Positions 1,339 to 50,736 of a stretch of DNA of 64,000 nucleotides are shown here, in pieces. The notes under the pieces are model-generated. The model made no database searches, was not told where the DNA came from, and saw only the letters and a program-made list of their open reading frames with translations. The stretch comes from an uncultured delta proteobacterium (GTDB lineage: Bacteria; Desulfobacterota; Desulfobacteria; Desulfobacterales; JAHEIW01). The stretch is taken from assembly GCA_963706575.1 (NCBI GenBank), contig CAVPNL010000015.1, positions 288,001 to 352,000 on the forward strand, written 5' to 3'. Both the position numbers and the translations under genes were made by a program. Each line of letters starts with the position of its first letter. Within the stretch, counting starts at the first letter, position 1.

Positions 1339-1465
1339 TGGAATGTTGGAAGAATGGAATACTGGAAGAATGGGTTTGGAATTGTGTGGTGATGGTTTTA
1401 TGGTAAAAATAGATAATATCCTTCATTAAACCAATATTCCATCATTCCACTATTCCATTATTCCA
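1339..1465. repeat. Mirrored 8-nt microrepeat element (TGGAAnnn arms)
   Basis: Left arm tggaatgttggaagaatggaatactggaagaatggg; right arm ccaatattccatcattccactattccattattcca is its inverted counterpart. Confidence 0.85.
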
Positions 1466-1538
1466 GCTATAGGTCATATTTTTAGTACGTAAAATTTTTA
1501 CTTGTTGCCGCTTACATTATTAGCTTTCACTTACCGCT

Positions 1539-2423
1539 CTATTCCCCCCCTTTTTCAGGGGGAATCAGCAATGTTGGATAAATGGATTCTTCGGCAATTT
1601 TGCGGGGCGTGCTGCCGATAAATTTTTCAACCCAGGCTGCCTTGGCGGAAGAGCCTAAAACAATCATGCTTGCCTGACAGTCTTTAGCCGCCTTTTCAAT
1701 TTCTTCGTCCGGATCGCCGATGTAAACATGCTCTCTGGCTTTGATCCCGGATGCCTCAAAGCTTTCACAGATTTCTTCCAGTTTATCGCGGGCTTCTTTG
1801 CGTGTTTTTTGAATCGCCATTGCCGACGGGCCTTTTAACTCTTTCTCATCGGCGACATGCACCAGATGGACTTCCTGCACCGTGTCTTTTAAGATTTTTA
1901 AATATTCAACGGCCCGCAGGCTGCCGGGTGACCAGTCGATTGCCAGAAGGGGTCTTTCAAACGGCTCTTCAACTGAAATGGTTGTTTCCGAAAGTTGTTT
2001 GTATACCAGCACCGGGGTCCAGGCCCGGCGCAGCAGTTCGGTCACATCTGAGCCCGAATAGAGGTGTTCGAGCACTCCCTTGTGCGAGCGTCCGATGACA
2101 ATCAGATCAGCATCCTCTTTTTGGGTGGCTTTGATGACCTCCGGCACCAGGCTGCCGACCACGATATACACACCGACTTCCATCCCCTGCTCAAAAAGCG
2201 TTTCGGACCAATCAATAAAGCGAATATTGGCCGCCTCCCGCAGCCGAATCTCCTCATCTTTCTGGTAGCCCTTGCCTCTGCGCATGGCCACCCGATCCCT
2301 TTCGATAACGTTCACAAACACCACATGCTCCAAAGCGCTGTTTCTCAAAGTTAGCAGCGATCGTAAGGCATCGAAGCCCAGTTCCTCAAATTTGGTCACA
2401 AAAAGCAGTTTTTTAATTTCCAT
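1539..2423 (-). CDS. Universal stress protein (tandem USP domains)
   Basis: Two USP domains (ADLIVIGRSHKG...GS; ASMIVLGSS...GSTPRKI...PTLLI). Confidence 0.92.
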   Translation of the reverse strand: MEIKKLLFVTKFEELGFDALRSLLTLRNSALEHVVFVNVIERDRVAMRRGKGYQKDEEIRLREAANIRFIDWSETLFEQGMEVGVYIVVGSLVPEVIKATQKEDADLIVIGRSHKGVLEHLYSGSDVTELLRRAWTPVLVYKQLSETTISVEEPFERPLLAIDWSPGSLRAVEYLKILKDTVQEVHLVHVADEKELKGPSAMAIQKTRKEARDKLEEICESFEASGIKAREHVYIGDPDEEIEKAAKDCQASMIVLGSSAKAAWVEKFIGSTPRKIAEESIYPTLLIPPEKGGE

Positions 2424-2466
2424 GCGATTGACACCCCTTGCTCGATTATCAAAACATAACAGGAAT

Positions 2467-2859
2467 TCAGCCCAGCACTTTTTTGATCACATCCGCCAGC
2501 TCATCGGGTTCGACCGGCTTCTCCAGATAAATTTCCGGCTCCGGAATTTCCTCACCGCCAAATTCCGTTAAGGCCTTCTGGGATCTTAAAAATGTCTTTT
2601 TGGCAATCCCCGACAGGATGATGACTTTAAGGTCTTTTAAAGCCTTGGCGGTTTTCAGCTCCCGATATAAGCGCACCCCGCTCTGGCGCGGCATTAAGAC
2701 ATCAAGGATAATCAGATCCGGCTTTTCGGCTTTGATCATCTTCAGGCCGCTTTCACCATCCTCTGCCTCCAACGGCGTATAACCGTGTTCTTCCAAAACT
2801 GTCACACTAAACAGCCGCACATCCGGATCATCATCAACGACCAGAACTTTTTTACTCAT
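2467..2859 (-). CDS. Single-domain response regulator
   Basis: VLVVDDD, LIILDVLMP and EKP receiver motifs. Confidence 0.95.
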   Translation of the reverse strand: MSKKVLVVDDDPDVRLFSVTVLEEHGYTPLEAEDGESGLKMIKAEKPDLIILDVLMPRQSGVRLYRELKTAKALKDLKVIILSGIAKKTFLRSQKALTEFGGEEIPEPEIYLEKPVEPDELADVIKKVLG

Positions 2860-2892
2860 AATATGGATCCTCCTTGAGAAACTGGTTAAAAC

Positions 2893-3092
2893 CAGGTTTC
2901 AGGTTTCAGCGTTCAGGGTTCAGGGTTCAGCGTTTTTGGCCGCTGGTCCTTGGGTTTAGTCGATTCGTTAATTCGTCGATTGGTCAAATAGTTTAAAATG
3001 ATTGAATCCACTGACCAATTGACTATTCAACCAATCAACTTTTTAACTATCCCTTTTAACCCCTGAACCTTTGAACGTTGAACCATTCAACC
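2893..3092. repeat. Nested mirrored microrepeat element: 7-nt (GGTTCAG...CTGAACC) outer arms around 8-nt (ATTGGTCA...TGACCAAT) inner arms
   Basis: caggtttcaggtttcagcgttcagggttcagggttcag ... ccctgaacctttgaacgttgaacc enclosing tcgattggtcaaatagt ... tgaccaattgactattcaaccaatcaact. Confidence 0.8.
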
Positions 3093-3109
3093 CGGCGGCT
3101 TATACCTAA

Positions 3110-4633
3110 TCAGTCGCCTGTTTTCGTTAGCTTATACGGCAGCCGAACGGTAACCGTCGTGCCTTTGCCGGGTTTGGATTTGACATCTATGGTTCCGCTG
3201 TGCTCTTCAATCAGCTTGCGAGTGACCATCAAACCCAGACCGGTGCCGCGGTGCCCCTTGGTGCTGAAAAAAGAAGTAAAAAGCTTCTTGATAACCTCTT
3301 CGTCCATGCCGACGCCGTTGTCGCTGATCTCGAATCTGATAACGTTATCCTTTTCAATAACGGTTTTCAAGTCAACCTGGAAATTTTTGCTGGTGTCTTC
3401 ATCAAACAGGCAGCCGTCGACGGCATTGGACATCAGATTCAAAAGGACTTCATGCACGCTGTTGGGGTCCATTGAGACTTCACCGATCGCGTCGTCAAAA
3501 TGTTTGACCAGTTTAACATTGTTTTCCCGGGCCTTATCCTGCAGCAGCGTGCAAACATCATCGGCGATTTGATTGGGCAAACAGGCTTCGAATTCCGGCT
3601 GGCGTTCTTTGGAGTAGGACAGCAGATCCATCACCAGATTCGAGGTGCGGCTGATGTTGCGCTTGATCATATCCCAGCCCTTTTTAAGCTTTTCGGATTC
3701 GTCTCTTTTTATTCCAATATCCACCAGATAGCTGCCGCCCTTGAGTCCGTGCAAAATATTTTTAATCCCGTGCGCCAGCCCCGCGACCGTTTGGCCGATG
3801 GCGGCCAGGCGCTCGGATTTGAGCAATTCTTTTTCCAGACGTTTGATTTCCCTTAAATCCTGAAAAAAAGTCACCGTGCCCACCGGTTGGTTTTTTTCCT
3901 GCAAAATGGTGCTTGAACACCGAACCGGAATCGCTTCTCCATTTTTAGACTCGATGGCCGTCTCTCTCCAGGCCAGGTTTTTGACATTATTTTTCCCGTT
4001 TAGCGCGGCCTGCAGGTCAGCTGCCAGCTCGGCCGGAAATAAATCAGCGGCCTGCATTTTGTTGATCGTTTCAGCGGGGGTGTATCCGAAGATCTCTCTG
4101 GCGATGGGATTATAAATAACGATTTTTAGATCTTCGCCGGTAGCAATGATGCCATCATTGGAGCTGCGAATGAGTTTAATTTGAAAATTGGATCGTCTTC
4201 GCAGTTCCCGCGTGGCGTCGTTAACCTTTTTTTCAAGGTCGATCGTGTATTCTTTGAGTTGCTGCCGGATATCAAATTTTTCTCTGGCACGGCCCAGCGC
4301 AATCGCAAGGGCCTCATCTCGCACCGGCTTGTTAATAAAATCTGAAGCACCGTGCTTTAAGGCCTCTATGGCATTTTCAATGTCACCGTGACCGGTAATG
4401 ATGATTACCTCGGTGTCGGCGTTGAGCACCTTAATTTTTTTTAGAACTTCAATGCCGTCCATACCGGGCATTTTAATATCGGTGAGGACGATATCCGGTT
4501 TTTCTTTTTCAAAGGCTGCAATACCCTCGGGGCCGTTTTGCGCAGTGACCACGTGATAGCCGTCCGCTTTTAAGGACATTGACAGAACCCTCAGGATATC
4601 AGGCTCATCGTCGATCAGTAATAATTTATCCAT
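3110..4633 (-). CDS. Hybrid receiver-PAS-histidine kinase
   Basis: N-terminal receiver, PAS, H-box AHGIKN, NLMSNA, DNGVGM, GTGLGL. Confidence 0.93.
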   Translation of the reverse strand: MDKLLLIDDEPDILRVLSMSLKADGYHVVTAQNGPEGIAAFEKEKPDIVLTDIKMPGMDGIEVLKKIKVLNADTEVIIITGHGDIENAIEALKHGASDFINKPVRDEALAIALGRAREKFDIRQQLKEYTIDLEKKVNDATRELRRRSNFQIKLIRSSNDGIIATGEDLKIVIYNPIAREIFGYTPAETINKMQAADLFPAELAADLQAALNGKNNVKNLAWRETAIESKNGEAIPVRCSSTILQEKNQPVGTVTFFQDLREIKRLEKELLKSERLAAIGQTVAGLAHGIKNILHGLKGGSYLVDIGIKRDESEKLKKGWDMIKRNISRTSNLVMDLLSYSKERQPEFEACLPNQIADDVCTLLQDKARENNVKLVKHFDDAIGEVSMDPNSVHEVLLNLMSNAVDGCLFDEDTSKNFQVDLKTVIEKDNVIRFEISDNGVGMDEEVIKKLFTSFFSTKGHRGTGLGLMVTRKLIEEHSGTIDVKSKPGKGTTVTVRLPYKLTKTGD

Positions 4634-7168: not shown

Positions 7169-7201
7169 GTTCCCCCGCTAATTTTTTTTAGCTCCCTTTT
7201 T

Positions 7202-7286
7202 CACCACAAAGAGCACGAAGAAACACGAAGGTTTTTGTAAAATTTTTTAATCTTTTCACTTCGTGCCCTTCGTGAGATTCGTGGTA
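7202..7286. repeat. Mirrored CACGAAG-type microrepeat hairpin
   Basis: accacaaagagcacgaagaaacacgaag ... cttcgtgcccttcgtgagattcgtggt around an AT-rich loop. Confidence 0.85.
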
Positions 7287-7353
7287 AAATTTAAATATTG
7301 TGAAATTAATTCCCTTCAATATCCTTTATGCCTTAAATAGATATCGAATCATT

Positions 7354-9160: not shown

Positions 9161-10054
9161 TTAATTAATTGTAGCGGCTAACGTAACGCGGAATTTTCGC
9201 AGAAAATCTTCCGGATGGTAGGACAATTTGGCTTTGCGGAGCCCTTCGTCATCTAAATCCTGTTCCCGATTGACAAAGGTGTAATCTGCGGCGGAATTCG
9301 CCAGAAATATCTGATTAATCGCCTGGTAAACACCTTTGTACTGGGTATCTCCTTTTTCAAAATGGATCAGCAGCATGTCACGGGTCAATGCTTCAGCAAC
9401 GGTATAGGCCACCATTGATCCGTCAACCATCAGGGCGCCGCCAAACAGACCTGCCAACTGCTGCCATTCTTTTAGAATTCGAAAAATAGCGCGATTTTCA
9501 GAAGAGAGGATATCGGACGATTCACAGTCGCGCCAGGTGCACCAGTCTGTCTGCATGTCCATGGCCTGTTCCACCATATCGGCCCCGAACGACTGGTAGC
9601 TGAAATCGTATCTGCGGTTAAATTGATTGAGCAGGTTCTTTTTTTTATGATAGCGATTACCCTTCAACTCAATCAGATCCGCGACCCGGTAGAAATAATC
9701 CCAGCTGCCCCTTTCTTCCTCAATTTGAATCTCCTGTGGTAATCTTTCACGCCATAGATTTGCCAGCATTTCCGGAACCCGGGAAAAAACAGACCGCGCG
9801 TTTGAGTTTAAACGCAGTCGGCTTTGCCAGTCGACCGCATCCCACAAACCGACGGGTGCCCACAGGAATTCTTCAGGCAGGTTTTGACGGATCCAGATCA
9901 AATCGCCATCCCAGGCCCAGCGAAGTTCGTATTCTTCGGCCCAGCCCCACAGGTTTAGAAAGCTGTAATCAGATGTAATCTGGGGACATCGGGAAAGAAT
10001 TTCCAGATAGTCTTCCTGTCTGTCTAGACGGATGGGTTCAAAGTTCAGGGTCAT
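9161..10054 (-). CDS. DUF2156 / phosphatidylglycerol lysyltransferase C-terminal-like protein
   Basis: IHFEKG, VNREQDL and GLRKAKLSYHP motifs. Confidence 0.88.
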   Translation of the reverse strand: MTLNFEPIRLDRQEDYLEILSRCPQITSDYSFLNLWGWAEEYELRWAWDGDLIWIRQNLPEEFLWAPVGLWDAVDWQSRLRLNSNARSVFSRVPEMLANLWRERLPQEIQIEEERGSWDYFYRVADLIELKGNRYHKKKNLLNQFNRRYDFSYQSFGADMVEQAMDMQTDWCTWRDCESSDILSSENRAIFRILKEWQQLAGLFGGALMVDGSMVAYTVAEALTRDMLLIHFEKGDTQYKGVYQAINQIFLANSAADYTFVNREQDLDDEGLRKAKLSYHPEDFLRKFRVTLAATIN

Positions 10055-10089
10055 AAAGTCGCTCTGTTGTTGCGGGTTTCAATAAAAAG

Positions 10090-10220
10090 GATTTCAGGTG
10101 TCATCCAGCTGGCAATCGCTATATTGGTTTGATTGGTTTAATTTGTTCAATTGGTTCGGTTTAAACCAACCAATTCAACCAATAAGACCAATTAAACAAA
10201 TCGAACCGTTTCTTGAATCC
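10090..10220. repeat. Mirrored 9-nt microrepeat element (ATTGGTTnA / TnAACCAAT), copy 1
   Basis: attggtttgattggtttaatttgttcaattggttcggtttaaaccaaccaattcaaccaataagaccaattaaacaaat; left flank ttcaggtgtcatccagctggcaa is shared with the 47260 copy. Confidence 0.9.
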
Positions 10221-10239
10221 TAATCTTTGAATTTTGCAC

Positions 10240-10833
10240 TTAGCCGGCAACAACGTGTGCGAACCGTTTTCCGGCGTCGTATGCTTCTTCGAGATATTCG
10301 GGATGTTTTAAAACATCATCCTGAAAATCGAGCTGGCGATATAACAGCGCTTTCCAGAGCTCCATGTCCAGAACATCGAAGAAATATTTTATACTCAAAA
10401 GCATACCATCAAAAAGCTTTTTGCCTTTGGTGGCGCCGACGGAGATAAACAGCCCTTTGCGATTGTTGGTCTGCTGCTCGGGGGGAGCTTTATCCACCCA
10501 ATATTTTTTGACCCACAGGGACTGGAACCGATCCATCAGCATTTTTGTGTGGGCGCTGACCGTATAGAAAAAGACCGGTGACGCCAGAATCAACCCCTGG
10601 GCGTGCAGAATTTTATCGCGAACCATCTGGAAATCATCTTTGATGGCACATTCCCCGGCCTTGAGGCACCCGTAAATTTCAAGGCAGGGCGATATTTTAA
10701 GATCGCGCAGAACGATTTCCTCAACATCGGCTCCGGAATCCCGCGCCCCTTCGATGGCTTTTTTTAACAGTGTGGCCGTATTGCCCTTGCGCCGGGGACT
10801 GCCGTAGATGGCGACTATTTTTAGCTGATTCAA
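10240..10833 (-). CDS. Iron-sulfur flavoprotein/flavodoxin family (NADPH-dependent FMN reductase-like)
   Basis: GSPRRKGNT, PCLEIYGC...C and ILASPVFF motifs. Confidence 0.88.
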   Translation of the reverse strand: MNQLKIVAIYGSPRRKGNTATLLKKAIEGARDSGADVEEIVLRDLKISPCLEIYGCLKAGECAIKDDFQMVRDKILHAQGLILASPVFFYTVSAHTKMLMDRFQSLWVKKYWVDKAPPEQQTNNRKGLFISVGATKGKKLFDGMLLSIKYFFDVLDMELWKALLYRQLDFQDDVLKHPEYLEEAYDAGKRFAHVVAG

Positions 10834-10860
10834 TCCCTAACCTCGCTTTAACGTTTAAAT

Positions 10861-11037
10861 AAGTGCCTAAAGTGAACTAAAGTGAGCTAAAGTGCCTAAT
10901 TTTATATAAGTGAGAAGTGAACTAAAGTGACTATAGTGCCTAAAGTTAAGGAATTCTATCATTTATATATAAAAAGATGGAGCGTAGCGACACCAAAACT
11001 TTAGGCACTTTAGTCACTCCCAACTTTAGTCACTTCA
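10861..11037. repeat. Mirrored 9-10 nt AAGTGnCTAA element with conserved core, copy 1
   Basis: (aagtgnctaa)n - ggaattctatcatttatatataaaaagatggagcgtagcgacacc - (tttagncact)n. Confidence 0.92.
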
Positions 11038-11829
11038 AATCTCTAAGACTAGCCCTATCGGGCAATGGTCGGACCCGAAAATATCGTTATCAATGAATGC
11101 CTCTTTGATCCAGCCTTTTTTAATAATATCCTCGGTCACGAAAAAGTAATCGATGCGCCACCCGACATTGCGATCCCTGGCTTTAAACCGGTAGGTCCAC
11201 CACGAGTATTTTACGGCTTCCGGAAAAAAATGTCTGAAGGTGTCTACATAACCGTTTTGGACAATCCGATCAAGCCAGTCCCGCTCGATTCTTAAAAAAC
11301 CGGATGTGTTTTCATTGGGTTTCGGGTTTTTCAGATCGATCTCGTTGTGGGCCGTATTGTAGTCGCCGGTAATGATGAGGCTGCGACCCTGTTTTCTATA
11401 GGAATCGGTATATTCAAAAAATGTTTCGTAAAAATCAAGCTTATACTGAAGCCTTTCATCGCTCATCTGACCATTGGGAAAGTAAACGTTAAAAAAGATA
11501 AAATCATCAAAATCCAGTTCAATAATGCGCCCTTCCTGATCAAATATAGAGACACCGAGCGCGGTGTTAACGCGCGTCGGTTTGATGCGCGAATAGGTGC
11601 CGACGCCGCTGTAACCTTTTTTTACCGTGGCGTGAGACCAGCAGGACTCATAACCTTCGATATTCTTCATCTTGTCGGTCATCTGATTTTCCTGAATCTT
11701 GGTCTCCTGAACAGAGAAAATGTCCGCATCCATCTGATGAAACAATGCAAAAAAATCCTTCTTAATGACGGCCCGCAGGCCGTTTACGTTCCAGGAGATC
11801 AATTTGATCCGCTTCTTCTTTTTCGCCAT
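11035..11829 (-). CDS. xth: Exodeoxyribonuclease III
   Basis: SWNVNGLRA, QETK, GDYNTAH, GWRIDYF and SDHCP motifs. Confidence 0.95.
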   Translation of the reverse strand: MAKKKKRIKLISWNVNGLRAVIKKDFFALFHQMDADIFSVQETKIQENQMTDKMKNIEGYESCWSHATVKKGYSGVGTYSRIKPTRVNTALGVSIFDQEGRIIELDFDDFIFFNVYFPNGQMSDERLQYKLDFYETFFEYTDSYRKQGRSLIITGDYNTAHNEIDLKNPKPNENTSGFLRIERDWLDRIVQNGYVDTFRHFFPEAVKYSWWTYRFKARDRNVGWRIDYFFVTEDIIKKGWIKEAFIDNDIFGSDHCPIGLVLEI

Positions 11830-11898
11830 ATTGAAATTCTCTTCTAATCGCAGTCAATTTCTAAAAGTTACGTTTGCACTTTAAATGGTAATTTTTTT

Positions 11899-11959
11899 AC
11901 CACGAAAGCACGAAAATTTTTCTTTTTTTCGTGTTTTGTTCCTTTCGTGCTTTCGTGAT
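11899..11959. repeat. Mirrored CACGAAAG-type microrepeat hairpin
   Basis: accacgaaagcacgaaa ... tttcgtgctttcgtgat. Confidence 0.8.
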
Positions 11960-11983
11960 TAATTCTGTAAGCTTAAATCTATC

Positions 11984-12532
11984 TCATTCTCTTAGTAATC
12001 TTTTGATTTTCAGTAGAATTTCGTTTTCCACCGAGCCTTCAAGGGCTTCCTTAAGCGAGCGCAGGCATTCCCGGATGATCGCGGTTTTGGGCCGTGAAGA
12101 CCCCAGCTGCGCATCAATGGTTTTTATATCCGCCATCAGCTCCGAAAGACCGTCAAAATCCAGACCCAGGTTGCCGGCCTGGTTTTTAAGCTCACCGGCG
12201 ACCTGTTCGACGCTCTGGCAGCTGGTGGTATCCATAACGGGTTGATCGGTCAGCTTGCCCGGCGAACCGTCCGCCAGAGGCGTACCGCCTGTCAGAAGCT
12301 TAACTTCATTGGCACCTTCGGTACTGATACCAATCCCGCCGGACAGCGTTCGAATTTCCACCAGCTGTAATCCAATTAGGGTTTCAGCCACCCGCGAACT
12401 GGTATCGCGGTCCAGGCCCAATCCCTCGCCGATGTCATACATGGAAACCTGTGCAGATGGATCGCCGCCGGTCTGCTCAAACAGTTGAATCAAAAATTGC
12501 TGGCCGGCTTCATCCAGTTCGCTGCTGCTCAT
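11984..12532 (-). CDS. Hypothetical protein (possible N-terminal winged helix)
   Basis: 182-aa ORF with AAGGA RBS; SMYDIGEGLGLD..SRVAETL..L.LV pattern resembles a wHTH. Confidence 0.7.
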   Translation of the reverse strand: MSSSELDEAGQQFLIQLFEQTGGDPSAQVSMYDIGEGLGLDRDTSSRVAETLIGLQLVEIRTLSGGIGISTEGANEVKLLTGGTPLADGSPGKLTDQPVMDTTSCQSVEQVAGELKNQAGNLGLDFDGLSELMADIKTIDAQLGSSRPKTAIIRECLRSLKEALEGSVENEILLKIKRLLRE

Positions 12533-12590
12533 AGATTCAATTGCATCCTTTCAATTAATGCGTTTTGGATAGGTGTCACTTAGAAATTAT

Positions 12591-12684
12591 TCGCACGCAA
12601 GCCGCAAAGCTCGCAAAGAAAAAAAATATAAATTTTTTAATAAAAAAAATTTTGCGCGCCTGTTTTTTGGCGTCTTTGCGTGAG
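12591..12684. repeat. Mirrored CGCAAAG-type microrepeat hairpin, copy 1
   Basis: tcgcacgcaagccgcaaagctcgcaaag ... tttgcgc...tggcgtctttgcgtgag. Confidence 0.8.
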
Positions 12685-12717
12685 GCCCTCAAGCTGTCAG
12701 CTTTTCTTTAGACGGCT

Positions 12718-13617
12718 TTAGGCGACCACCGCTTGAATAGCCGACCGGATATCCGGATACTGAAATTCGAAACCGTGGCTCAAAAGCTTAGCGGGAATGG
12801 CGCGCTGGCTGTCCAGCAGTATGTTGCCGAATTCTCCGAGCACGGCGCGGACCATAAATGCCGGAGCCGGCATGATGGCCGGCCGGCCCAGTACTTGCCC
12901 CAGGGTGTTTGCCAGCTCACGGTTTCTCACCGGATTGGGAGCGCAAAAGTTAAGCGGGCCATCGACCTGCGGATGTTCACAGACAAACAGAATCGCGGCC
13001 ATCAGATCGGTCAGATGCATCCAGGGAAACCATTGGTTCCCGCTGCCGATGGGACCGCCTACAAAAGATTTAAAGGCCGGAATCATCTTGGCCAGGGCCC
13101 CGCCGCCTTTTCCCAGAATTACGCCAAATCGCATCAGCGCCACCCGGATTCCTTTGGCAGTCCCTTTCAGCGCCGCTGCTTCCCAGTCCACCGAAACCGA
13201 GGCTAAAAAATCAATACCGGGCTTTTCGTCTTCTTCTAAAAGGTCGTCGCCCCGGTTGCCGTAATATCCGGCACCGGATGCACTGCAAAGGACCACCGAT
13301 TGATCGGCCGGCAACGCATCCACCACGTTGCGGGTGGTTAATACGCGACTGTCGTATATCTGCTTCTTATAGCTTTTGCTCCAGCGCTTGAAAATTGATT
13401 TGCCGACCAGATTAACCACAGCATCCACATCGCCCAGTGCTTTCTGCCAGTCTCCCGCTTGAGTGGTGTCCGCTGAGATGTATTGATACCTGTCGGCGGT
13501 TATCCGATTTTGGGTCGCCGCCCGTCCCACTGCAATGACGGCGTGCCCTTTATCCAGAAGGTAATCCGAAAGGTTTGCGCCGACAAATCCCAGACCACCC
13601 GTAATTAGAATTTTCAT
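12718..13617 (-). CDS. TIGR01777 family NAD-dependent epimerase/oxidoreductase
   Basis: MKILITGGLGFVG after a GGAGG RBS; GYYG and GGPIGSGNQWFPW motifs. Confidence 0.92.
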   Translation of the reverse strand: MKILITGGLGFVGANLSDYLLDKGHAVIAVGRAATQNRITADRYQYISADTTQAGDWQKALGDVDAVVNLVGKSIFKRWSKSYKKQIYDSRVLTTRNVVDALPADQSVVLCSASGAGYYGNRGDDLLEEDEKPGIDFLASVSVDWEAAALKGTAKGIRVALMRFGVILGKGGGALAKMIPAFKSFVGGPIGSGNQWFPWMHLTDLMAAILFVCEHPQVDGPLNFCAPNPVRNRELANTLGQVLGRPAIMPAPAFMVRAVLGEFGNILLDSQRAIPAKLLSHGFEFQYPDIRSAIQAVVA

Positions 13618-13643
13618 GGGTCCCTCCTGCGATTTGCACACAC

Positions 13644-19157: not shown

Positions 19158-19303
19158 TAGAACCCATCTCAAAAATAGGATTTTGGTTCAAGATCGCGGC
19201 GGGGCCGAGCTTTAAACCGCAGGCATACTGTTGTATGTTGAGGATTTAAAGCGAGGCACCAACAAAGATATTGGGCCAAAAGACATTTTTGAGATGGGTT
19301 CTA
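19158..19303 (+). mobile_element. MITE-like element family A, copy 1 (about 145 bp)
   Basis: TIR tagaacccatctcaaaaat ... atttttgagatgggttcta; near-identical copies at 22560 and 61814. Confidence 0.9.
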
Positions 19304-22559: not shown

Positions 22560-22753
22560 TAGAACCCATCTCAAAAATAGGATTTTGGTTCAAGATCGCG
22601 GCGGGGCCGAGCTTTCCAGCGTTGCTGGACTTCCCGCCTGATTAAATCCTCTTTGTGAGTCGTAAACCGCAGGCATACTGTTGTATGTTGAGGATTTAAA
22701 GCGAGGCACCAACAAAGATATTGGGCCAAAAGACATTTTTGAGATGCGTTCTG
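22560..22753 (+). mobile_element. MITE-like element family A, copy 2 with a 48-bp internal insertion (22616-22663)
   Basis: Direct alignment to the 19158 copy. Confidence 0.9.
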
Positions 22754-24459: not shown

Positions 24460-24506
24460 TTTGACACCTCAAATAGTCTAATAGCTATTTTAAAATACAT
24501 CAACGC

Positions 24507-24678
24507 AAGTGCGCTAAAGTAAGAAGTGAGCTAAAGTGACGAATTTTTTACAAGTGAGAAGTGAACTAAAGTGAATAGAGTGCCTAAAGTTGAGGAATTC
24601 TGTCATATATATAAAAAGATGGAGCATAGCGACACCACAACTTTAGTCACTTCCAACTTTAGTTCACTTTAGTCACTT
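24507..24678. repeat. AAGTGnCTAA mirrored element, copy 2
   Basis: Same arms and core gaggaattctgtcatatatataaaaagatggagcatagcgacacc. Confidence 0.92.
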
Positions 24679-24754
24679 TTTTTGTGCTTTGTCCCTAAAA
24701 AATTGATCTGCTTTTGGATAGCTCCAATGAGCAAAAAGGAGCACACCCGGACTT

Positions 24755-31473: not shown

Positions 31474-31683
31474 GAAACTATCTCAAAAATACATCAAAGA
31501 AAGTGCTCTAAAGTTTAAAGTGATCTAAAGTGATCCCGCTACAGCGGGATTGAGGAATTCTATTATTTTTATAAAAAGATGGAGCAAAGCGACACCAAAA
31601 CTTTAGGCACTTTAGCTCACTTTAGTCATTTTAGGCACTCGTTGTTTTCTTGAAGCGTAATCTACTATTCATGAGACAGTACC
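31474..31683. mobile_element. Degenerate MITE-like TIR pair enclosing AAGTGnCTAA element copy 3 (31501-31639)
   Basis: gaaactatctcaaaaata ... tattcatgagacagtacc; inner element has the conserved core plus an inserted atcccgctacagcgggat hairpin. Confidence 0.75.
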
Positions 31684-34141: not shown

Positions 34142-34224
34142 ACCGCGAAGGCCACAAAGAAACAAATTTTTTAATTTTGTTCTAATCTTGGTGTGTCTTC
34201 GTGTACTATGTGTTCTTTGTGGTG
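34142..34224. repeat. Degenerate CACGAAG/CACAAAG mirrored hairpin
   Basis: accgcgaaggccacaaag ... cttcgtgtactatgtgttctttgtggt. Confidence 0.7.
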
Positions 34225-34454: not shown

Positions 34455-34578
34455 GGCTCAGGGATCAGCGGTTCAATGTTTAACGATTTGTTAAATTAGT
34501 TTTATTTGTTTTATTGGTTGAATTGGTTGGCATAAACCGAACCAATTGAACAAATTAAACCAATCAAACCAATCTAAC
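34455..34578. repeat. 9-nt ATTGGTT mirrored element, copy 2 (reverse orientation), preceded by GGTTCAG-type units
   Basis: attggttgaattggttggcataaaccgaaccaattgaacaaattaaaccaatcaaaccaat. Confidence 0.85.
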
Positions 34579-34647
34579 GGTATAATAGATGCCTTGAGTG
34601 CCGGGCTTATACATACTTTGTGAGTCCGTGGCTAAATAAAATTTAAT

Positions 34648-36584: not shown

Positions 36585-36729
36585 AATCTATCACAAAAAT
36601 GCGTCTAAGTGTCCAGGGCCGCGTTGTCCCGCCCGAGTTGAAATACTCACGTACTCCGTGTACGCTCCGTTTTCAACTCGCGGGACGCCTTGCCCTGAAC
36701 CCCGATCCACAATTTTTGAGATAGATTCA
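36582..36729 (-). mobile_element. MITE-like element, divergent relative of family A
   Basis: TIR gaatctatcacaaaaat ... atttttgagatagattc; internal stems are homologous to family A on the minus strand; left end coincides with the permease TAG stop. Confidence 0.8.
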
Positions 36730-36757
36730 AGAAGCGGTCTTAAACGTGCGTTAAGGC

Positions 36758-36885
36758 AAGTGCATTAAAGTTAAGAGTGATCTAAAGTGACTAAAGTTGA
36801 GGAATTCTGTCAATCATATAAAAAAGATGGGGCCTCGCGACTCCTTAACTTTAGTCACTTCACACTTTAGTTCACTTTAGTCACT
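36758..36885. repeat. AAGTGnCTAA mirrored element, copy 4
   Basis: Arms plus core gaggaattctgtcaatcatataaaaaagatgg; overlaps the stop codon of the adjacent gene. Confidence 0.9.
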
Positions 36886-37821
36886 ATCATTTTGTGTTTT
36901 CTGCTCTTGGTTTTGTGGCTGGGATTTAGCGGCAGCGGGATTGGCCTGGACCGCTTTTTTCCGGGGAATAAATTCAGCTATAAAATGAGTGGAATGAATA
37001 ACTGAGATGGTTTTAACGGCCACAAAAATGGAACCAAGCACCAGCAGATAGACCAGGCTGCCTTCAACCCGGTTGAGCAAGCCCTCCACGGCCATAGCGA
37101 TGTAAAGCAACAGAAAGATTTCTAGAATTGCATTGAGCAGCCCGAGCAAATAGTGGCGAGTATAAAAATAACCGCCTCCCGGAAAAAGAATAGCCAGAAT
37201 ATAGGCAATGATTTTGTTTTTAAACTTTAAACCACAGGACTCGCAGACATATTTTGCGGCTGTCAGCAGCCGGGTGCACTGCGGGCAAAGGTGAAATCGT
37301 TCGCCCACCTGACTTTTGGTCCCCGAGAAGGGCTTTTGTTTAAGCAATGCCCTGATTTTTTTCCTTTCCGACAGCGCAATGGCTTTAAACTTCTCTATTT
37401 TGCCGGATTTTGTATGCTGCACAACCAGGGTTCCGCCCTTTAGCTCAATGGATTGGCAACCGGAGTAGTAAATCTGAGAGAGCGATTGCTTGAATTTGTA
37501 ATTCGGGGTGGTCGGCACATGAAAAATTCGATGATTGGTAAAGACAAACAGGGAGCGTTTAAGATAAACAAATAAGAAGCCGGTAACATATTGGGGCAGG
37601 GATGTAATCGGAGAATATCCGGTCGAAACCTGCAAAATCTTCTCACCGGTTTTCAAAAAGGGTTTGAGAAAGGATAATTTGACAATAAATTTGCGCTGCC
37701 GATTTTCAATTCGTTTTTTATAAATTTTTTTATGATTGGAAAACAGGGTTTCGCGATCAACCGGCAGCCCAAAAATCTGCGGCCCCATTATGCCGGTCGG
37801 TTCAAAGGCTTTATCTGCCAT
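36877..37821 (-). CDS. Hypothetical membrane protein with zinc-ribbon and TM2-like segment
   Basis: CPQC...CESC followed by LAILFPGGGYFY and TM helices. Confidence 0.75.
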   Translation of the reverse strand: MADKAFEPTGIMGPQIFGLPVDRETLFSNHKKIYKKRIENRQRKFIVKLSFLKPFLKTGEKILQVSTGYSPITSLPQYVTGFLFVYLKRSLFVFTNHRIFHVPTTPNYKFKQSLSQIYYSGCQSIELKGGTLVVQHTKSGKIEKFKAIALSERKKIRALLKQKPFSGTKSQVGERFHLCPQCTRLLTAAKYVCESCGLKFKNKIIAYILAILFPGGGYFYTRHYLLGLLNAILEIFLLLYIAMAVEGLLNRVEGSLVYLLVLGSIFVAVKTISVIHSTHFIAEFIPRKKAVQANPAAAKSQPQNQEQKTQNDSD

Positions 37822-39719: not shown

Positions 39720-39840
39720 TATTTGTTCAATTGGTTTTATTGGTCTTATTGGTTGAATTCGTTGGCTTAAACCGAACCAATCGAACGAATTAAACCAATT
39801 AAACAAATGTAACGTTCGCCAACTGACTGACACTTGAAAT
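39720..39840. repeat. 9-nt ATTGGTT mirrored element, copy 3 (reverse orientation)
   Basis: atttgttcaattggttttattggtcttattggttgaattcgttggcttaaaccgaaccaat...; flank gccaactgactgacacttgaa resembles the reverse complement of the copy 1/4 flank. Confidence 0.88.
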
Positions 39841-42171: not shown

Positions 42172-42241
42172 TCTCACGCAAAGCCGCTAAGCCGCAAAGC
42201 GTGATGATTTAATCATAAAAACTTTGCGCATTTGCGTGAGA
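42172..42241. repeat. Mirrored CGCAAAG-type hairpin, copy 2
   Basis: tctcacgcaaagccgctaagccgcaaag ... ctttgcgcatttgcgtgaga. Confidence 0.8.
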
Positions 42242-42845: not shown

Positions 42846-42978
42846 TGAATCCTTCCTTCCGCACAACCGCAACTTATCTGCCCATATCATGAACCGGCTG
42901 CATATTCCATTGCAAAATCTCCGAATCTGAGTCCAACTAAATTTGACAGGCCAACGGCGATCCTTTACAATTTTAGAC

Positions 42979-44460: not shown

Positions 44461-44530
44461 CCTGTTGCCGACTTCTTTTGCTTTTCAATAATTTTGGGCA
44501 GGCGGGACCGAAGTATGATATAATCCAAAA

Positions 44531-44598
44531 AAGTGCCTAAAATGCCTAAAATTGGAAGTGCCTAAAATTAAGGCATTCTGTCGATTTTAAATTTAGCT
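44531..44598. repeat. Truncated AAGTGCCTAA element, copy 5
   Basis: aagtgcctaaaatgcctaaaattggaagtgcctaaaattaaggcattctgtc. Confidence 0.8.
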
Positions 44599-44599
44599 C

Positions 44600-45328
44600 A
44601 TGATCGAACTAACAGACCTGACAAAAAAATACGGTGAGTTCCAGGCGGTGAATGACCTGAACCTTTGTGTTAAAAAAGGAGAGGTTTTTGGATTTATCGG
44701 CCCCAACGGCGCCGGCAAAACCACCACCATTAAAATGATGGGCGGCATTCTCGAGCCGACCAAAGGTTTGGTGAAAATTGCCGGCATTAACATGCGGGAA
44801 GAGCCTGAAAAAGCCAAAAGTAAAATCGGTTTTATTCCCGACCGGCCCTATCTGTACGAAAAACTCACCGGCATGGAATTTTTAAGATTCACCGGGGATT
44901 TGTACGGGGTATCCGAAGACGCATTTGAGGCAAGCGCTTTTAAAATCCTCAAAGATTTTTCGCTGGCGGACTGGGCCGATGAGCTGGTTGAATCCTATTC
45001 CCACGGTATGAAACAACGGCTGATTATGTCGGCAGCCCTCCTGCACGATCCGGAAGTGATTATCGTAGATGAGCCCATGGTGGGACTCGATCCGGCAGCC
45101 ATTATGATGGTTAAAAAACTTTTTAGAGAGCTTGCCGAACAGGGCGTCACCGTCTTTATGTCTACCCATACCCTCAAAGTAGCTGAGGAAACCTGCGATC
45201 GGATCGGGGTGATTAATAAAGGCCGTTTAATCGCCATGGGAACAACCAAAGAATTGCAGCGGGAGGCCAACATCACCGAAGCCGACCTCGAACGGGTCTT
45301 TTTAAACCTGACCAACAATGTTTCCTGA
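44600..45328 (+). CDS. ABC transporter ATP-binding protein
   Basis: GPNGAGKTT, YSHGMKQR and VDEP motifs. Confidence 0.94.
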   Translation: MIELTDLTKKYGEFQAVNDLNLCVKKGEVFGFIGPNGAGKTTTIKMMGGILEPTKGLVKIAGINMREEPEKAKSKIGFIPDRPYLYEKLTGMEFLRFTGDLYGVSEDAFEASAFKILKDFSLADWADELVESYSHGMKQRLIMSAALLHDPEVIIVDEPMVGLDPAAIMMVKKLFRELAEQGVTVFMSTHTLKVAEETCDRIGVINKGRLIAMGTTKELQREANITEADLERVFLNLTNNVS

Positions 45329-45339
45329 AATTAGTAGTT

Positions 45340-45440
45340 ACGGGACACCGGTCGCTGGCCACTGGCTGCCGGCCGAGCCAGAGACAAGCAGCCCGGAAGG
45401 CGTGACCAGAAGCCAGAAACCAGCGGCAAGCAGCGAGTAA
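45340..45440. repeat. Degenerate 7-nt (CTGG/CCAG) mirrored microrepeat
   Basis: cgctggccactggctgc ... ccagaagccagaaaccagcggcaagcagcg. Confidence 0.55.
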
Positions 45441-45441
45441 A

Positions 45442-47130: not shown

Positions 47131-47179
47131 GCCCTTTCAATCTTCCAATCTTGCGAAACTCCTTATTCAATTTTTCATC

Positions 47180-47226
47180 TTGACATGTAGAATGTTTACA
47201 TTTATATTTACATTAATATTTACATT
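47180..47226 (+). promoter_or_regulatory. Sigma-70 promoter of lexA overlapped by a triple TTTACAT repeat (candidate LexA operator)
   Basis: TTGACA 47180-85, 17-bp spacer, TATATT 47203-08; TTTACAT at 47195, 47207 and 47219. Confidence 0.7.
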
Positions 47227-47239
47227 CTTATCAGGAAAG

Positions 47240-47430
47240 GTGTTCAGCCGGGGGCAGATTCAGGTGCCAGCCAGCTGGCAAATGTTATATTTGTTTAATT
47301 GGTTTAATTCGTTCAATTGGTTCGGTTTAAGCCAACCCATTCAACCAATAAGACCAATTGAACCAATTGAACAGGCCTTTGAACCCTGAACGTTTGAATT
47401 GCTGAACCTTGAACCTTAGAACCTGCAACC
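47240..47430. repeat. Nested GTTCAG/CTGAAC element containing 9-nt ATTGGTT element copy 4
   Basis: ttcaggtgccagccagctggcaa-[atttgtttaattggtttaattcgttcaattggttcggtttaagccaacccattcaaccaataagaccaat]-tttgaaccctgaacgtttgaattgctgaaccttgaacc. Confidence 0.85.
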
Positions 47431-47446
47431 TTGTATCGGAGGTCCC

Positions 47447-48079
47447 ATGCAACCCCAGCCGACACCGAAACAGCAGCGTTTTCTGGATTATCTCCAGCGG
47501 GAGATCGCCAAAAGCGGTCTGTGTCCCAGCCTGCGCCAGGCCGCAGCGGATCTGGGGGTCAGCCATGCCGCCATCGCCCAGATGCTTCGTGTGCTGGAAG
47601 AAAAGGGCTATGTGAGACGGGAGGGCCGCTACAGTCGCAAGGTCTACCTGTTAAACCGCGCTCGCGAGGCATCGGCTTTGCAGCGCGGGCGCGAAATCCC
47701 GATTATCGGTCGGGTCACGGCCGGCCTGCCGATGTATGCCCAGACGGAGTGGGACGGCAGCATCGTGCTGGACGCCGCCGTTTACCGCAGTCAAAATATT
47801 TTTGCCCTGCGCGTTAAAGGCGATTCGATGAAGGATGCCGGCATCCTCAGTGGCGATCTGGCAATCTGCAAACCACGCCAGTTCGCCCAGAACAGCGAAA
47901 TCGTCGTGGCGCTTATCAACAGCGAAGAGGCCACCGTCAAACGCTTCTTTTTACATGACGATCACATTGAGCTGCGTCCCGAAAACACCGACTACGCCCC
48001 CATGCGCTACGGCTTCGACGAAGTGCTGATCCAGGGCAAGGTTATCGGCATCCACCGCGGACCGGAGGGAATAAAATGA
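47447..48079 (+). CDS. lexA: LexA repressor
   Basis: N-terminal wHTH, Ala-Gly cleavage site (VTAG), catalytic Ser (GDSM) and Lys (ATVKR). Confidence 0.93.
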   Translation: MQPQPTPKQQRFLDYLQREIAKSGLCPSLRQAAADLGVSHAAIAQMLRVLEEKGYVRREGRYSRKVYLLNRAREASALQRGREIPIIGRVTAGLPMYAQTEWDGSIVLDAAVYRSQNIFALRVKGDSMKDAGILSGDLAICKPRQFAQNSEIVVALINSEEATVKRFFLHDDHIELRPENTDYAPMRYGFDEVLIQGKVIGIHRGPEGIK

Positions 48080-48273
48080 GCACGCTGCGCGTTTGAGGAC
48101 CGGCCCTGCGGGCCTCGAGGAGCGGTCCTTCAGACCTTTAGGAGCGCTTCGCTTTAGGCAGTAAAAAAATGCCTCAAGTCCCGCCGAAAGCGGGACGCTC
48201 CTCAAACGGAGCGCATCGAATGCGCGGAGTGCTCCTCTAGTTCCGCCGAACACGGGCGGAATGATCCTCCAAC
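48078..48273. repeat. GC-rich TTGAGGAGCG/CGCTCCTCAA structured repeat, copy 1
   Basis: Homologous to 50575-50736 (shared gcgcggagtgctcctctagttccgcc). Confidence 0.85.
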
Positions 48274-48328
48274 AGGGCGTGATGACATTGCGCAGGCGTC
48301 GCAACACCCTTTGACGTCGAAAACAAAA

Positions 48329-49153
48329 ATGCAAACCGAACAAAGAAAAAGCCCCTGCCGCCTGCGGGTCGGCACCAGCGGCTATTCGTATGCAGAGTGG
48401 GTCAACGCCGGGTTTTACCCGTCGGGCACCCGGTCCGGCCAGATGCTGCCGCTTTACGCGCAAACGTTTCCCATCACCGAACTGAACTTCACCTGGTACC
48501 AGATGCCGAAAGCGGCCGCGATCGAACGCCTGCGCCAGCAGGCACCGCTCGGTTTTCGCTTTGCCGCCAAACTGACCCGCACCTTAACCCATGAGGTCGA
48601 TCCCAACCAATGGCGCGGGCAGGTCTCCCGGTACCGCGACGGCATGGCACCGCTCACCCAGGCCCGGCAACTGACGGCCGTTCTGCTGCAGTTTCCGCCG
48701 AGCTTTTCCCGGGCGCCGAAAAACCGCTACTATCTGGCCGCCCTGCTGGATGAACTGGACGGATTGCCCCTGGCGGTGGAATTTCGCCATGCTTCCTGGG
48801 CCACCGACCGGGTTTTTGACGAACTGCAACGCCGTCGCACCACCCTGGTCGCCGTGGATGAACCGAATCTGCCGGGCCTGTTCCCGCAGCTGGATGTGGT
48901 CACCAATCCGGATCTTTTCTACGTTCGGTTTCACGGTCGCAACGCCCGAGGCTGGCGCTCGGGCAATATGCAAATGCAGTTCGACTACGACTACAGTAAT
49001 GAAGAGCTGCGGGGATGGGCCGATAAAATCATCGCCCCCATGACCCGGCAGGCCGGCAGCGGCGTTATTTTTTTCAACAATCACGTTCGCGCCCAGGCGC
49101 CTAGAAATGCCCGGCGTCTGATCAGTCAGCTCATCGAGAAGGGTTTGTTGTAA
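48329..49153 (+). CDS. DUF72 family protein
   Basis: VGTSGYSY, ELNFTWY, LLQFPP, AVEFRH, YVRFHGRN and FFNNH motifs. Confidence 0.93.
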   Translation: MQTEQRKSPCRLRVGTSGYSYAEWVNAGFYPSGTRSGQMLPLYAQTFPITELNFTWYQMPKAAAIERLRQQAPLGFRFAAKLTRTLTHEVDPNQWRGQVSRYRDGMAPLTQARQLTAVLLQFPPSFSRAPKNRYYLAALLDELDGLPLAVEFRHASWATDRVFDELQRRRTTLVAVDEPNLPGLFPQLDVVTNPDLFYVRFHGRNARGWRSGNMQMQFDYDYSNEELRGWADKIIAPMTRQAGSGVIFFNNHVRAQAPRNARRLISQLIEKGLL

Positions 49154-49194
49154 CCGAAACAGATTTTCAACATCGACAATCGCTCAACTTTAGG

Positions 49195-49327
49195 AGTGAG
49201 TGCCTAAAATGCCTAAAATGAGCTAAAGTGCCTAAAGTTATGGTGTCGCTTCGCTCCATCTTTTCTTATAAAATTGACAGAATTCCTTAATTTTAGGCAT
49301 TTTAGGCACTTCACACTTTAGGCATTT
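49195..49327. repeat. AAGTGnCTAA mirrored element, copy 6 (core inverted)
   Basis: Core ggtgtcgcttcgctccatcttttcttataaaattgacagaattcc is the reverse complement of the other copies. Confidence 0.92.
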
Positions 49328-49398
49328 GCTCAAGCAAACGGGCTGATTTTAGAAACCTCGATCCACACGTTGACGACTTCGTCACTTGAAAGCAAACA

Positions 49399-50571
49399 AT
49401 GAACCGTTCCATTATCCATTTAAATGTAGCCGATTTTGCCGTGGCGGTGGAGCGCGCGGTGGATCAGCGGCTCGATCAGCGCCCGGTGATCATCGCACCC
49501 GAAGGCGCCGCCCGGGCCGCTGTTTACGATATGAGCAACGAGGCTTACCTGGCCGGTATCCGCAAGGGCATGGCCCTGCGCCGCGCTGTGCGCCTCTGCA
49601 AAGATGTCCAGATCCTGCCGCCCCATCCGGACCGCTATGAGCTGGCCATGCGCGATGTGCTCAAGCGCGCCCTACCGTATTCGCCCCTGATCGAAACCGG
49701 TGAAGACGACGGCCACCTGTTCATGGATGCCACCGGCACCTCCCGTCTTTTTGGCCCGCCCAGGGACGTAGCCTGGCGGTTGCGCAGGCAGATTAAAACC
49801 GATCTGGGCCTGGACCCGATCTGGTCGGTGGCGCCCAACAAGCTGGTTGCCAAAGTGGCCACGCGCCTGGTGAAGCCTGACGGGGAGTATATCGTCGCCC
49901 CCGGCCAAGAGGAAGCGCTGCTGGCCCCGCTGCCGGTCAGTCTGGTTCCGGGCATCGAGCACGCCGATCAGCTGCGGTTACGGGAATTTAACCTGACCCA
50001 TGCATTCCAGGTTTCGGCGCTGAGCCTGGAGCAGTTGGAGATCCCTTTTGCAACCCGTGCGCAACTGCTTTACGAAGCGGTACGCGGCATCGATCCGTCT
50101 GCGGTTTTGCCGGTCGGACAAAAGCCACCAAAGATCATTGCGGACCACGAATTCGGCAATGACACCAACGACGCCCACATCTTGGAAGCGGTTCTCTACG
50201 GCCTGGTGGAGCAGGCCGGCAGCCGGCTGCGCCGGCGCCGTCGCGCTGCGCGACGCATCGCTATGATCCTCGACTATTCCGACGGCATGCGCCGCGCCCG
50301 CCAGGTGGCCGCCCGACCGGCCACGGCCAATGATCTCATCCTCTTTGACCTGGCCCGCCGCACCCTCCGGCTGGCCTGGACGCGACGGGTGCGCATCCGG
50401 CACATGCGCCTGGTCTGCGACCGACTGATCTTTCCGCCGGCTCAGCTGGAACTGTTCGCCGCCGACCAAACCGCCAATGAAAAACGCTGCGGCCTGATCA
50501 CGGCCATCGACACCGTCCGCCATCGCTTCGGCAGTCAGGCGCTGCGGTTCGGCCGCACGCTGGCAGCGTAA
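49399..50571 (+). CDS. Y-family polymerase homolog, probably catalytically inactive (ImuB-like)
   Basis: IIHLNVADFAVAVE lacks the first catalytic Asp of HxDMD, no SIDE motif, NKLVAK retained, C-terminal QLELF clamp-binding motif. Confidence 0.85.
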   Translation: MNRSIIHLNVADFAVAVERAVDQRLDQRPVIIAPEGAARAAVYDMSNEAYLAGIRKGMALRRAVRLCKDVQILPPHPDRYELAMRDVLKRALPYSPLIETGEDDGHLFMDATGTSRLFGPPRDVAWRLRRQIKTDLGLDPIWSVAPNKLVAKVATRLVKPDGEYIVAPGQEEALLAPLPVSLVPGIEHADQLRLREFNLTHAFQVSALSLEQLEIPFATRAQLLYEAVRGIDPSAVLPVGQKPPKIIADHEFGNDTNDAHILEAVLYGLVEQAGSRLRRRRRAARRIAMILDYSDGMRRARQVAARPATANDLILFDLARRTLRLAWTRRVRIRHMRLVCDRLIFPPAQLELFAADQTANEKRCGLITAIDTVRHRFGSQALRFGRTLAA

Positions 50572-50574
50572 AAA

Positions 50575-50736
50575 GAGCGCTGCGCTTGAGGAGCAGCCCT
50601 GCGGGCTTTGAGGAGCGGCCTTGAAGCTGCAGACAAGAAGGGTTCTTTTGCCTCAAGCGAAGCGCTCCTTAAACGGAGCGTATCAGAGGCGCGGAGTGCT
50701 CCTCTAGTTCCGCCATCGGCGGAACGATTCTCCAAC
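50575..50736. repeat. GC-rich structured repeat, copy 2
   Basis: Homologous to 48078-48273. Confidence 0.85.

Follow-up and report, generated by a model that had tools for sequence, protein, structure and literature searches.

Mirrored word arrays in the gene spacers of an uncultured Desulfobacterales bacterium share their arms with four-helix-bundle and GxxExxY gene cassettes

Described bacterial repeat systems offer partial precedents for a class of gene-less hairpin elements found in the intergenic spacers of an uncultured delta proteobacterium of the Desulfobacterales. The elements were recognized in a stretch of 64,000 nucleotides, called the window here (GenBank assembly GCA_963706575.1, contig CAVPNL010000015.1, positions 288,001 to 352,000; C15:288001-352000 in the contig numbering used below). 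Each has an arm, which is a tandem array of a short word, then a short core, then the same array inverted. A preliminary description of the window reported this architecture in about 20 spacers and suggested that they are the empty form of cassettes carrying small four-helix-bundle or GxxExxY genes. All 20 sites are confirmed, and the second proposal is supported by shared arms and by full, hollowed, and collapsed states of one junction among relatives. The elements are real and numerous and can be traced to gene cassettes, and their lateral exchange is likely. A literature search, which covered main texts mostly outside the subscription journals, found partial precedents and no description of the class. 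The available parts of PMC10910872 and PMC5524665 contain nothing further on it.

The intervening sequence in the 23S ribosomal RNA (rRNA) gene of Coxiella burnetii is a gene-bearing precedent. According to the available part of its description (PMC4990558), it carries an S23p gene with tandem GACAGAT/GACAGAA heptamers before the start and has terminal inverted repeats. It is cut by RNase III, its heptamer number varies, and horizontal spread has been proposed. The likeness is to the filled forms described below, which lie outside the window, and not to the window copies: a gene of the same four-helix-bundle family lies inside terminal inverted repeats, and the arms of one clade here have a GACAGA-type word as well. 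Unlike rRNA intervening sequences, the elements here lie between protein genes, with none of the window sites in an rRNA gene, and they show no RNA-strand bias. They also comprise more than 20 word families and a second, unrelated gene family, and gene-less forms outnumber filled ones by at least 40 to 1. As far as the available text goes, the Coxiella intervening sequence looks like one filled member, which is in print but has not been seen as part of a class.

The best functional analogues are REPINs with their RAYT transposases and the Ssn/NTS system, as far as the accessible parts of their descriptions go, and the elements here lack the enzyme and the repeat form that define each. In the REPIN system (Bertels and Rainey 2011, PMC3116915), as here, a few protein genes are each tied to their own repeat group, and there are hundreds of extragenic, gene-less inverted doublets that nest and decay to singlets; the elements here are likewise hairpin-forming and mostly extragenic (417 of 470 loci fully in spacers). 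In contrast, and in line with the distinction drawn in the preliminary description, their arms are tandem arrays of non-palindromic words of 5-7 nt and not repetitive extragenic palindromic (REP) sequences, their partner protein is not a Y1 transposase, and both gene ends may survive in the hollow state. None of the six PF01797 matches in the genome is flanked by element arrays, and the palindromes of two are of the ordinary REP-like kind. At C15:145707 and C19:5817 of the genome under study (G000) there are RAYT-like Y1 genes accompanied by REP palindromes. REPs also nest inside GGTTCAG hairpins, and RAYT cassettes compete for the junctions of four-helix-bundle cassettes. The Ssn/NTS system (Chenal et al. 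2025; PMC11893778) shares with the elements a single-domain nuclease gene, cognate inverted flanking repeats, many stand-alone repeats, and a link to recombination. However, Ssn is a GIY-YIG protein (cd10448), while the genes here belong to PF05635 or to PF13366, the latter PD-(D/E)XK-like by structure model. NTS is described as a single hairpin per side and not as mirrored tandem arrays, and most families here belong to a non-nuclease four-helix bundle.

MITEs (miniature transposable elements with inverted repeats) of the IS630/Tc1 type are non-autonomous, internal-deletion derivatives with inverted ends. The hollow forms here are similarly internal-deletion derivatives of a putatively autonomous cassette with the same ends. 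Unlike MITEs, they have no target duplication, no fixed terminal repeat length, and no transposase among the clean cargo. They also differ from CRISPR arrays, as previously proposed: the units are head-to-tail and mirrored, there are no unique spacers, Rfam gives no match of any kind in the window, and no cas domain is found in the 30 of its main open reading frames (ORFs) that were scanned. Intergenic tandem heptamers of about four units that are rare between divergent genes are known from Xanthomonas, where inverted GGGAATC pairs are transcribed (PMC4692102), and from the Beggiatoaceae, which have direct TAACTGA repeats (PMC4679880). The Xanthomonas repeats also include many convergent inverted pairs. 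In contrast to the elements here, these are described as single families with quadruplex or regulatory roles, and the accessible parts of the two papers describe no link to flanked genes or hollowing.

Mirrored arrays are abundant in the genome and nearly confined to spacers. The genome is a 5.67-Mb assembly of 25 contigs, and it was compared with 21 genomes of the same genus and 3 of the same family. The window genes point to a sulfate reducer, probably from sediment. It has 6.4% contamination or strain duplication; near-identical locus pairs on two contigs (C6:747695/C20:5976 and C17:44544/C22:60105) fit this figure. A strict de novo scan for an array of a 5-mer followed within 150 nt by an array of its reverse complement found 470 loci, compared with 62 for the complement and 37 for the reverse as controls. 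At least 21 clusters have three or more members, and there are many nested forms. Arms mostly have three exact units and seldom more than five. By the crude gene calls used for all genome-wide placement counts, 417 of the loci are wholly in spacers. Fixed family words gave 527 calls in native polarity and 5 when flipped, and these calls fall in 470 of the 3705 spacers of at least 40 bp but in only 6 of 10613 coding tiles. The spacer count is an undercount: of 41 window spacers given to the fixed-word classifier it detected 11, and a number of known elements escaped it. The elements fill at least one in eight spacers of the genome, some of them inside ribosomal-protein operons, and closely related species differ through their turnover.

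The placement of the elements is biased. Co-directional (310 of 2217), convergent (63 of 407), and divergent spacers (43 of 564) are all occupied, while short divergent spacers seldom are (1 of 83 versus 122 of 1058). Elements lie closer to the upstream stop in 212 cases and closer to the downstream start in 96. These biases could result from selection against insertions that break promoters or ribosome-binding sites. The AAGTG family has a conserved core, which is found at 44 sites and in either orientation, even at one site; among the co-directional copies 17 are sense and 14 antisense. A GC-GNA-GC motif in this core, a candidate DNA mini-hairpin, varies in its middle base (20/11/11/2 of 44) and has no clear genome-wide enrichment.

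The arms of the gene-less hairpins are also the arms of gene cassettes. The genome has eight matches to PF05635 (four-helix bundle) and four to PF13366 (GxxExxY), corresponding to NCBIfam TIGR02436/TIGR04256. By eye, mirrored arrays bracket seven of the eight PF05635 genes (two of them duplicates) and three of the four PF13366 genes, and four of these have words found in the window. PF05635 occurs in 23 of the 24 relatives and PF13366 in 16. An initial set of about 1.2 Mb of relatives' loci contained no cassette gene. A scan for arms with long gaps found no further cargo (63 matches versus 102 flipped, which is no enrichment), and the genes cleanly enclosed by arms were four-helix-bundle and GxxExxY genes alone.

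The word in the arms follows the clade of the protein. The cassette sample comprised 111 reading frames at 109 loci, a subset of the relatives' PF05635 and PF13366 matches. When arm words are mapped onto a tree of 76 four-helix-bundle proteins, 25 changes are required for 22 groups, compared with 49.7 when shuffled, and for 30 GxxExxY proteins (FastTree) 10 are required, compared with 17.8. This fit is partly trivial because many rows are copies at the same site, and near-copies inflate the statistics of both trees. An independent test used the AAGTG clade across GTDB. Among the best 80 loci, 77 had sufficiently long flanks, and by a strict count 46 of these have AAGTG arms. They span five phyla: Desulfobacterota-like (27 of 41), Planctomycetota (13 of 18), Bacteroidota (4 of 15), Calditrichota (1 of 2), and Acidobacteriota (1 of 1). 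Most of the loci that failed the strict count have variant units by eye, and six other words were found at none of the 77. Seven of the eight window words are the arms of particular clades: GGTTCAG, TGGAA, AAGTG, GAGGAGC, and CTGG belong to four-helix-bundle clades, while the CACGAA group and CGCAAAG belong to GxxExxY clades. The same gene clade is found in several different junctions, and of 41 armed cassettes 39 have an ORF upstream on the same strand.

Orthologous junctions in congeners show cassettes at different stages of hollowing. Some have a bare gene overlap and others a full cassette; elsewhere the hairpin is hollow but keeps the first and last codons, has collapsed, or has given way to an element of a different family. 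At the gatC junction, 12 of 15 loci had both flanks. Two of these have full GxxExxY cassettes, as in this genome; in two the arms enclose roughly eight codons from each end of the gene, which meet at a short homology; two keep the last codons only, four have other alleles, and two are short. At a junction on contig C3, where 20 of 21 loci had both flanks, three are bare 4-nt stop/start overlaps, two are full cassettes, one has arms and the first nine codons, and four have the generic AAGTG hollow core. The others are two collapsed hairpins, seven elements of other families, and one remnant. This pattern recurs at rlmN and at mutL; at the latter, two relatives (G015 and G003) have a RAYT with REPs in place of the cassette. 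At the lexA site (47240) a full four-helix-bundle gene lies between GGTGTCA or GGTTCA arms in 5 of 20 relatives, the gene is internally deleted in one, and in five, as in this genome, an ATTGGTT hairpin is nested where the gene was.

The AAGTG core itself consists of the left and right inner flanks of the full cassette, joined. Core halves were found 11 times among the 80 GTDB loci, and at one locus (L387) both are present, one on each side of the gene. Since the core is found at 44 sites, the gene-less AAGTG form itself multiplied or was copied between arms. At C3:328854-330478 adjacent junctions have a hollow and a full AAGTG cassette, and the nearest relative has the reverse arrangement (G005 C368, L425), which is either a real swap or a misassembly.

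Element families turn over among relatives, in large part probably by recombination between species. In the operon at 9161-13641 each of four junctions has three to five families or short spacers in relatives (20 loci from 19 genomes), and the sharing of alleles shifts from one junction to the next. Turnover is similar at the 1339 and 2893 sites and in the ribosomal-protein operons, while no elements occupy tightly coupled junctions. Over about 750 kb and 303 junctions shared with the nearest relative, 17 junctions have the same family and 10 have different families; at 37 just one of the two genomes has an element, and at 239 neither does. Thus 47 of the 64 element-bearing junctions differ, so orthologous spacers do not carry invariant arrays. 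On the ribosomal tree the family labels cost 5-8 changes where 1-4 would suffice; at six of eight hand-labelled junctions their clustering does not exceed that of shuffled labels, and at two P is near 0.02. In eight of nine ribosomal spacers (one of them marginal) the best allele from the same site outside the clade is closer than any paralogue within the genome, so alleles are site-specific and are shared between clades. Coding divergence beside replaced spacers is raised in the first 30 nt (10.3% versus 7.9%; 0 of 2000 permutations), and this fades within about 200 nt and has faded by 240-400 nt. Because family swaps largely ignore the species tree and are accompanied by short tracts of raised divergence, exchange by homologous recombination between species is likely, more so than polymorphism of long standing. 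In all six comparisons between clades, the identity of cassette genes exceeds that of their neighbors by 3-11 points. With respect to homing endonuclease cassettes, which spread at one site across lineages with co-converted flanks, the short tracts of raised divergence and the high cross-clade identity would fit such spread, and the lack of a tract by family and of excess turnover would not.

The 20 window elements vary in form more than first described, and unit number varies freely between copies, as noted from the outset. Fifteen have a fold z of -2.7 or lower against dinucleotide shuffles; folding is weaker at 12593, 34455, 44529, 45350, and 50576. The unit of the GAGGAGC family recurs every 20-30 nt and not every 7-10 nt as first given. 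Six AAGTG copies are present, as reported, but only five are hollow cassettes. These are at 10861..11035 (conserved core and an extra nested arm), 24506..24679 (conserved core), 31500..31640 (a small palindrome inserted in one arm), 36758..36885 (in a convergent spacer), and 49195..49327 (core in the cassette-sense orientation). The sixth, at 44529..44580, is a half element with the left arm and part of the core. The sites earlier grouped as CACGAAG are related but form three subfamilies of GxxExxY-type hollow hairpins, CACGAAG (7203..7284), CACGAAA (11899..11957), and CACAAAG (34142..34224). The CGCAAAG hollow hairpins, also with a GxxExxY-type word, are at 12593..12683 (degenerate) and 42174..42240. 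A TGGAA hollow hairpin at 1339..1465, between usp and a cytidylate-kinase-like gene, and a CTGG/CCAG hairpin at 45350..45435 each have the word of one four-helix-bundle clade, which for CTGG was seen in a single cassette. ATTGGTT hairpins are found at 39722..39808 and 10112..10205, where relatives have a GGTGTCA allele, a CTGG allele, or a short spacer.

Three sites are nested structures, with one family inside another. At 2893..3085, between a histidine kinase and a response regulator, GGTTCAG outer arms enclose a GATTGGT/GTTAATT hairpin. At 34455..34582 an ATTGGTT hairpin has a degenerate GGTTCAG left arm outside it, and at 47240..47432, upstream of a lexA-like gene, GGTTCAG/GGTGTCA arms enclose an ATTGGTT hairpin. 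GAGGAGC hairpins follow at 48080..48240, right after the lexA-like stop, where relatives have three other families, and at 50576..50712, between imuB-like and dnaE2-like genes. Elements do occur inside operons and between convergent genes, as first stated, but those at 34142 and 34455-34582 are in a divergent spacer. Similarly, nearly all are intergenic and none was thought to disrupt a gene, but arms can overlap a stop codon: the element at 10861 overlaps that of exonuclease III (11035), and the arm at 36877 supplies that of the ORF at 36877-37821. The preliminary description found no mobilizing gene in the window, and this holds: among 30 of the main ORFs, scanned against Pfam, there is no mobilizing enzyme, and the window has no PF05635, PF13366, or PF01797 gene.

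Other features were seen in and around the window. The lexA-like gene heads a damage-inducible cassette (DUF72, imuB-like, dnaE2-like; 47447-53753) with a hairpin element in every operon junction, and conserved TTTACAT direct repeats in its promoter (47180-47226) are a candidate operator. GC-rich palindromes of about 16-25 nt are inserted in arms or loops (31522-31545 and many alleles of relatives), which adds another level of nesting. A non-periodic MITE family with inverted ends of about 18 nt bounded by TA, which we take to be IS630-like, is found at 19158-19303, about 22565-22752 (with an inserted segment), 36585-36730, and 60530-60637. It has 78 end pairs and 46 blast hits of at least 110 nt genome-wide. 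A second TA-bounded family, in the L23-L2 and L6-L18 ribosomal junctions of relatives (L034-L073), shows clean filled/empty pairs and collapsed remnants. A 51-nt tandem duplication lies within a coding region at 57666-57770.

The two cassette proteins are unrelated. In GxxExxY proteins E28, D68, E78, K80, and Q92 are invariant in 16 of 16 sequences, giving a D, an ExK, and a preceding E. The structure model (pLDDT 94) has the Cas4-type protein SSO0001 as its best Foldseek match (E 2.9e-4), and in VIA it matches restriction-endonuclease folds with a middling score (top Z 8.3, root-mean-square deviation 2.6 over 93 residues). Searched against PDB sequences, the GxxExxY alignment had no significant match. 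By its predicted structure the protein thus matches PD-(D/E)XK nucleases. The four-helix-bundle protein matches PDB 2rld, which has five chains. The TRAP ring binds several fixed words separated by free bases, and by analogy a four-helix-bundle ring could bind several spaced words. Avd, which is similar to S23 proteins, is described in the accessible text as a pentameric, positively charged barrel that binds RNA (10.1101/2023.10.23.563531).

The gene-less hairpins share the arms of cassettes and at several junctions lost the gene by deletion. With moderate confidence, they are explained as selfish DNA that spreads mainly by recombination, and the cognate proteins are predicted to bind their words and to assist in founding new sites. 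The cycle begins, as observed, with one small gene between mirrored arrays of its clade's word in a gene junction, even one that elsewhere is a 4-nt stop/start overlap. Internal deletion then removes the gene, as seen in congeners, so that the arms enclose either its terminal codons or the joined inner flanks, and more deletion yields a collapsed hairpin or a single arm. One hollow form occupies unrelated sites by the dozen, whichever way round, and members of other families lie inside it or take its place; this pattern is observed, and its mechanism is conjectural. Whole junction alleles would pass from one co-occurring species to another when flanking genes recombine homologously, while arms with the same word may recombine so that interiors are exchanged or inverted. 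The first insertion at a new junction would be protein-assisted and at the DNA level: GxxExxY would nick the hairpin, and a pentameric four-helix-bundle ring would grip several repeat units.

Several observations weigh against this explanation. There is no sign of target-site duplication (direct-repeat score at the census loci 3.56 versus 3.60 +/- 0.05 shuffled), and a 2-nt duplication could be missed because element ends are fuzzy. The four-helix-bundle fold is not known to have a catalytic role. There is no sign of drive, since spacers with an element were not replaced significantly more often than those without (21 of 39 versus 58 of 125, p = 0.47). At four window junctions the family type has no co-inherited coding tract and does not predict flanking sequence, and the higher identity of cassette genes could come from stronger purifying selection. 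The commonest family, ATTGGTT, has no parent gene in the cassette sample. In a first test arms were undetected at 39 of 104 cassettes and the control gave 26 positives. Tblastn found no convincing gene remnants in hollow loops, most of which contain no recognizable remnant, and blastn with relatives' genes found one clear hollow copy; other blastn matches were rejected as arm sequence included through wrong start calls. Not every hairpin is traceable to a gene. A clade of 17 four-helix-bundle proteins has no periodic arms. Its members (C4:622288; L209, L210, L213, L216, L218, L219) stay at a single site throughout the genus; short palindromic repeats come after them, in many cases with a small gene, and the clade is possibly domesticated. 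Finally, repeats can be misassembled in fragmented assemblies. The proposal that the hairpins are a mobile or amplifying class is supported in outline, but no target-site duplication was found, much of the turnover resembles recombination, and some hairpins lack a traceable gene.

The strongest alternative is that cassettes are useful or addictive genes with arms as self-regulatory sites, and that the hollow hairpins are neutral debris of slippage and ordinary recombination between species, the proteins not being movers. The equal turnover of element-free spacers, the lack of target duplication, deletion at short homologies, and the free variation of unit number all fit this account. However, a single non-repetitive hollow core lies at 44 unrelated sites, the same gene clade is in several different junctions, and a cassette has opened a pristine 4-nt overlap. 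Therefore something must place elements at new sites, and neutral debris appears rather unlikely.

It is unlikely that the elements act as RNA, with arms that pair, excision of the cassette by RNase III, binding of the repeats by an Avd-like ring, and reinsertion by a reverse transcriptase. The same-strand ORF upstream of 39 of 41 armed cassettes, the position nearer to upstream stops (212 versus 96), and the avoidance of short divergent spacers (1 of 83 versus 122 of 1058) would be expected of such elements. As far as the available texts show, the Coxiella intervening sequence combines a gene of the same family with heptamers, inverted ends, and an RNase III cut (PMC4990558), and Avd, a related pentamer, works with a reverse transcriptase (10.1101/2023.10.23.563531). 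In contrast, folding shows no preference for the transcribed strand (144 of 310; G-U pairs 131 versus 130), the orientation of the AAGTG core is random, and the genome has a single reverse transcriptase match, away from the cassettes. An apparent strand signal in full cassettes (56 of 76) was rejected as compositional, because it is lost with arms only (20 versus 22) and kept with mismatched partners (45-55 of 76). Public RNA runs yielded only contigs of relatives, with small word shares. The least probable alternative, and a very unlikely one, is that the host has domesticated the hairpins to adjust gene ratios in operons through processing, stability, or pausing. Some ribosomal-operon junctions are occupied in most genomes whatever the family, and the Xanthomonas heptamers are reported as transcribed in the accessible part of PMC4692102. 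However, close relatives can have a collapsed hairpin or no element at these junctions, one family or orientation can stand in for another, and no asymmetry between RNA strands is seen.

Selfish spread may involve an undescribed class of element. It is likely that the hairpins spread as selfish DNA that is swapped between related sediment bacteria. More tentatively, a pentameric ring and a minimal PD-(D/E)XK nuclease may read clade-specific words and drive insertion with no transposase, recombinase, or target duplication, while orthogonal pairs keep populations of hollow forms. The insertion targets would be stop-codon junctions and the elements themselves, with dozens of protein-word pairs per cell. 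If true, two very large families of orphan proteins would gain a function, and bacterial intergenic heptamer repeats and ORF-bearing rRNA intervening sequences would be one phenomenon. One life cycle ties together intergenic heptamer repeats, the S23p intervening sequence, and two protein families of unknown function. Protein and word come in matched pairs, so the function of four-helix-bundle and GxxExxY proteins can be tested directly. Should these pairs prove to be orthogonal binders or nucleases, they would be a natural toolbox of very small sequence-specific proteins.

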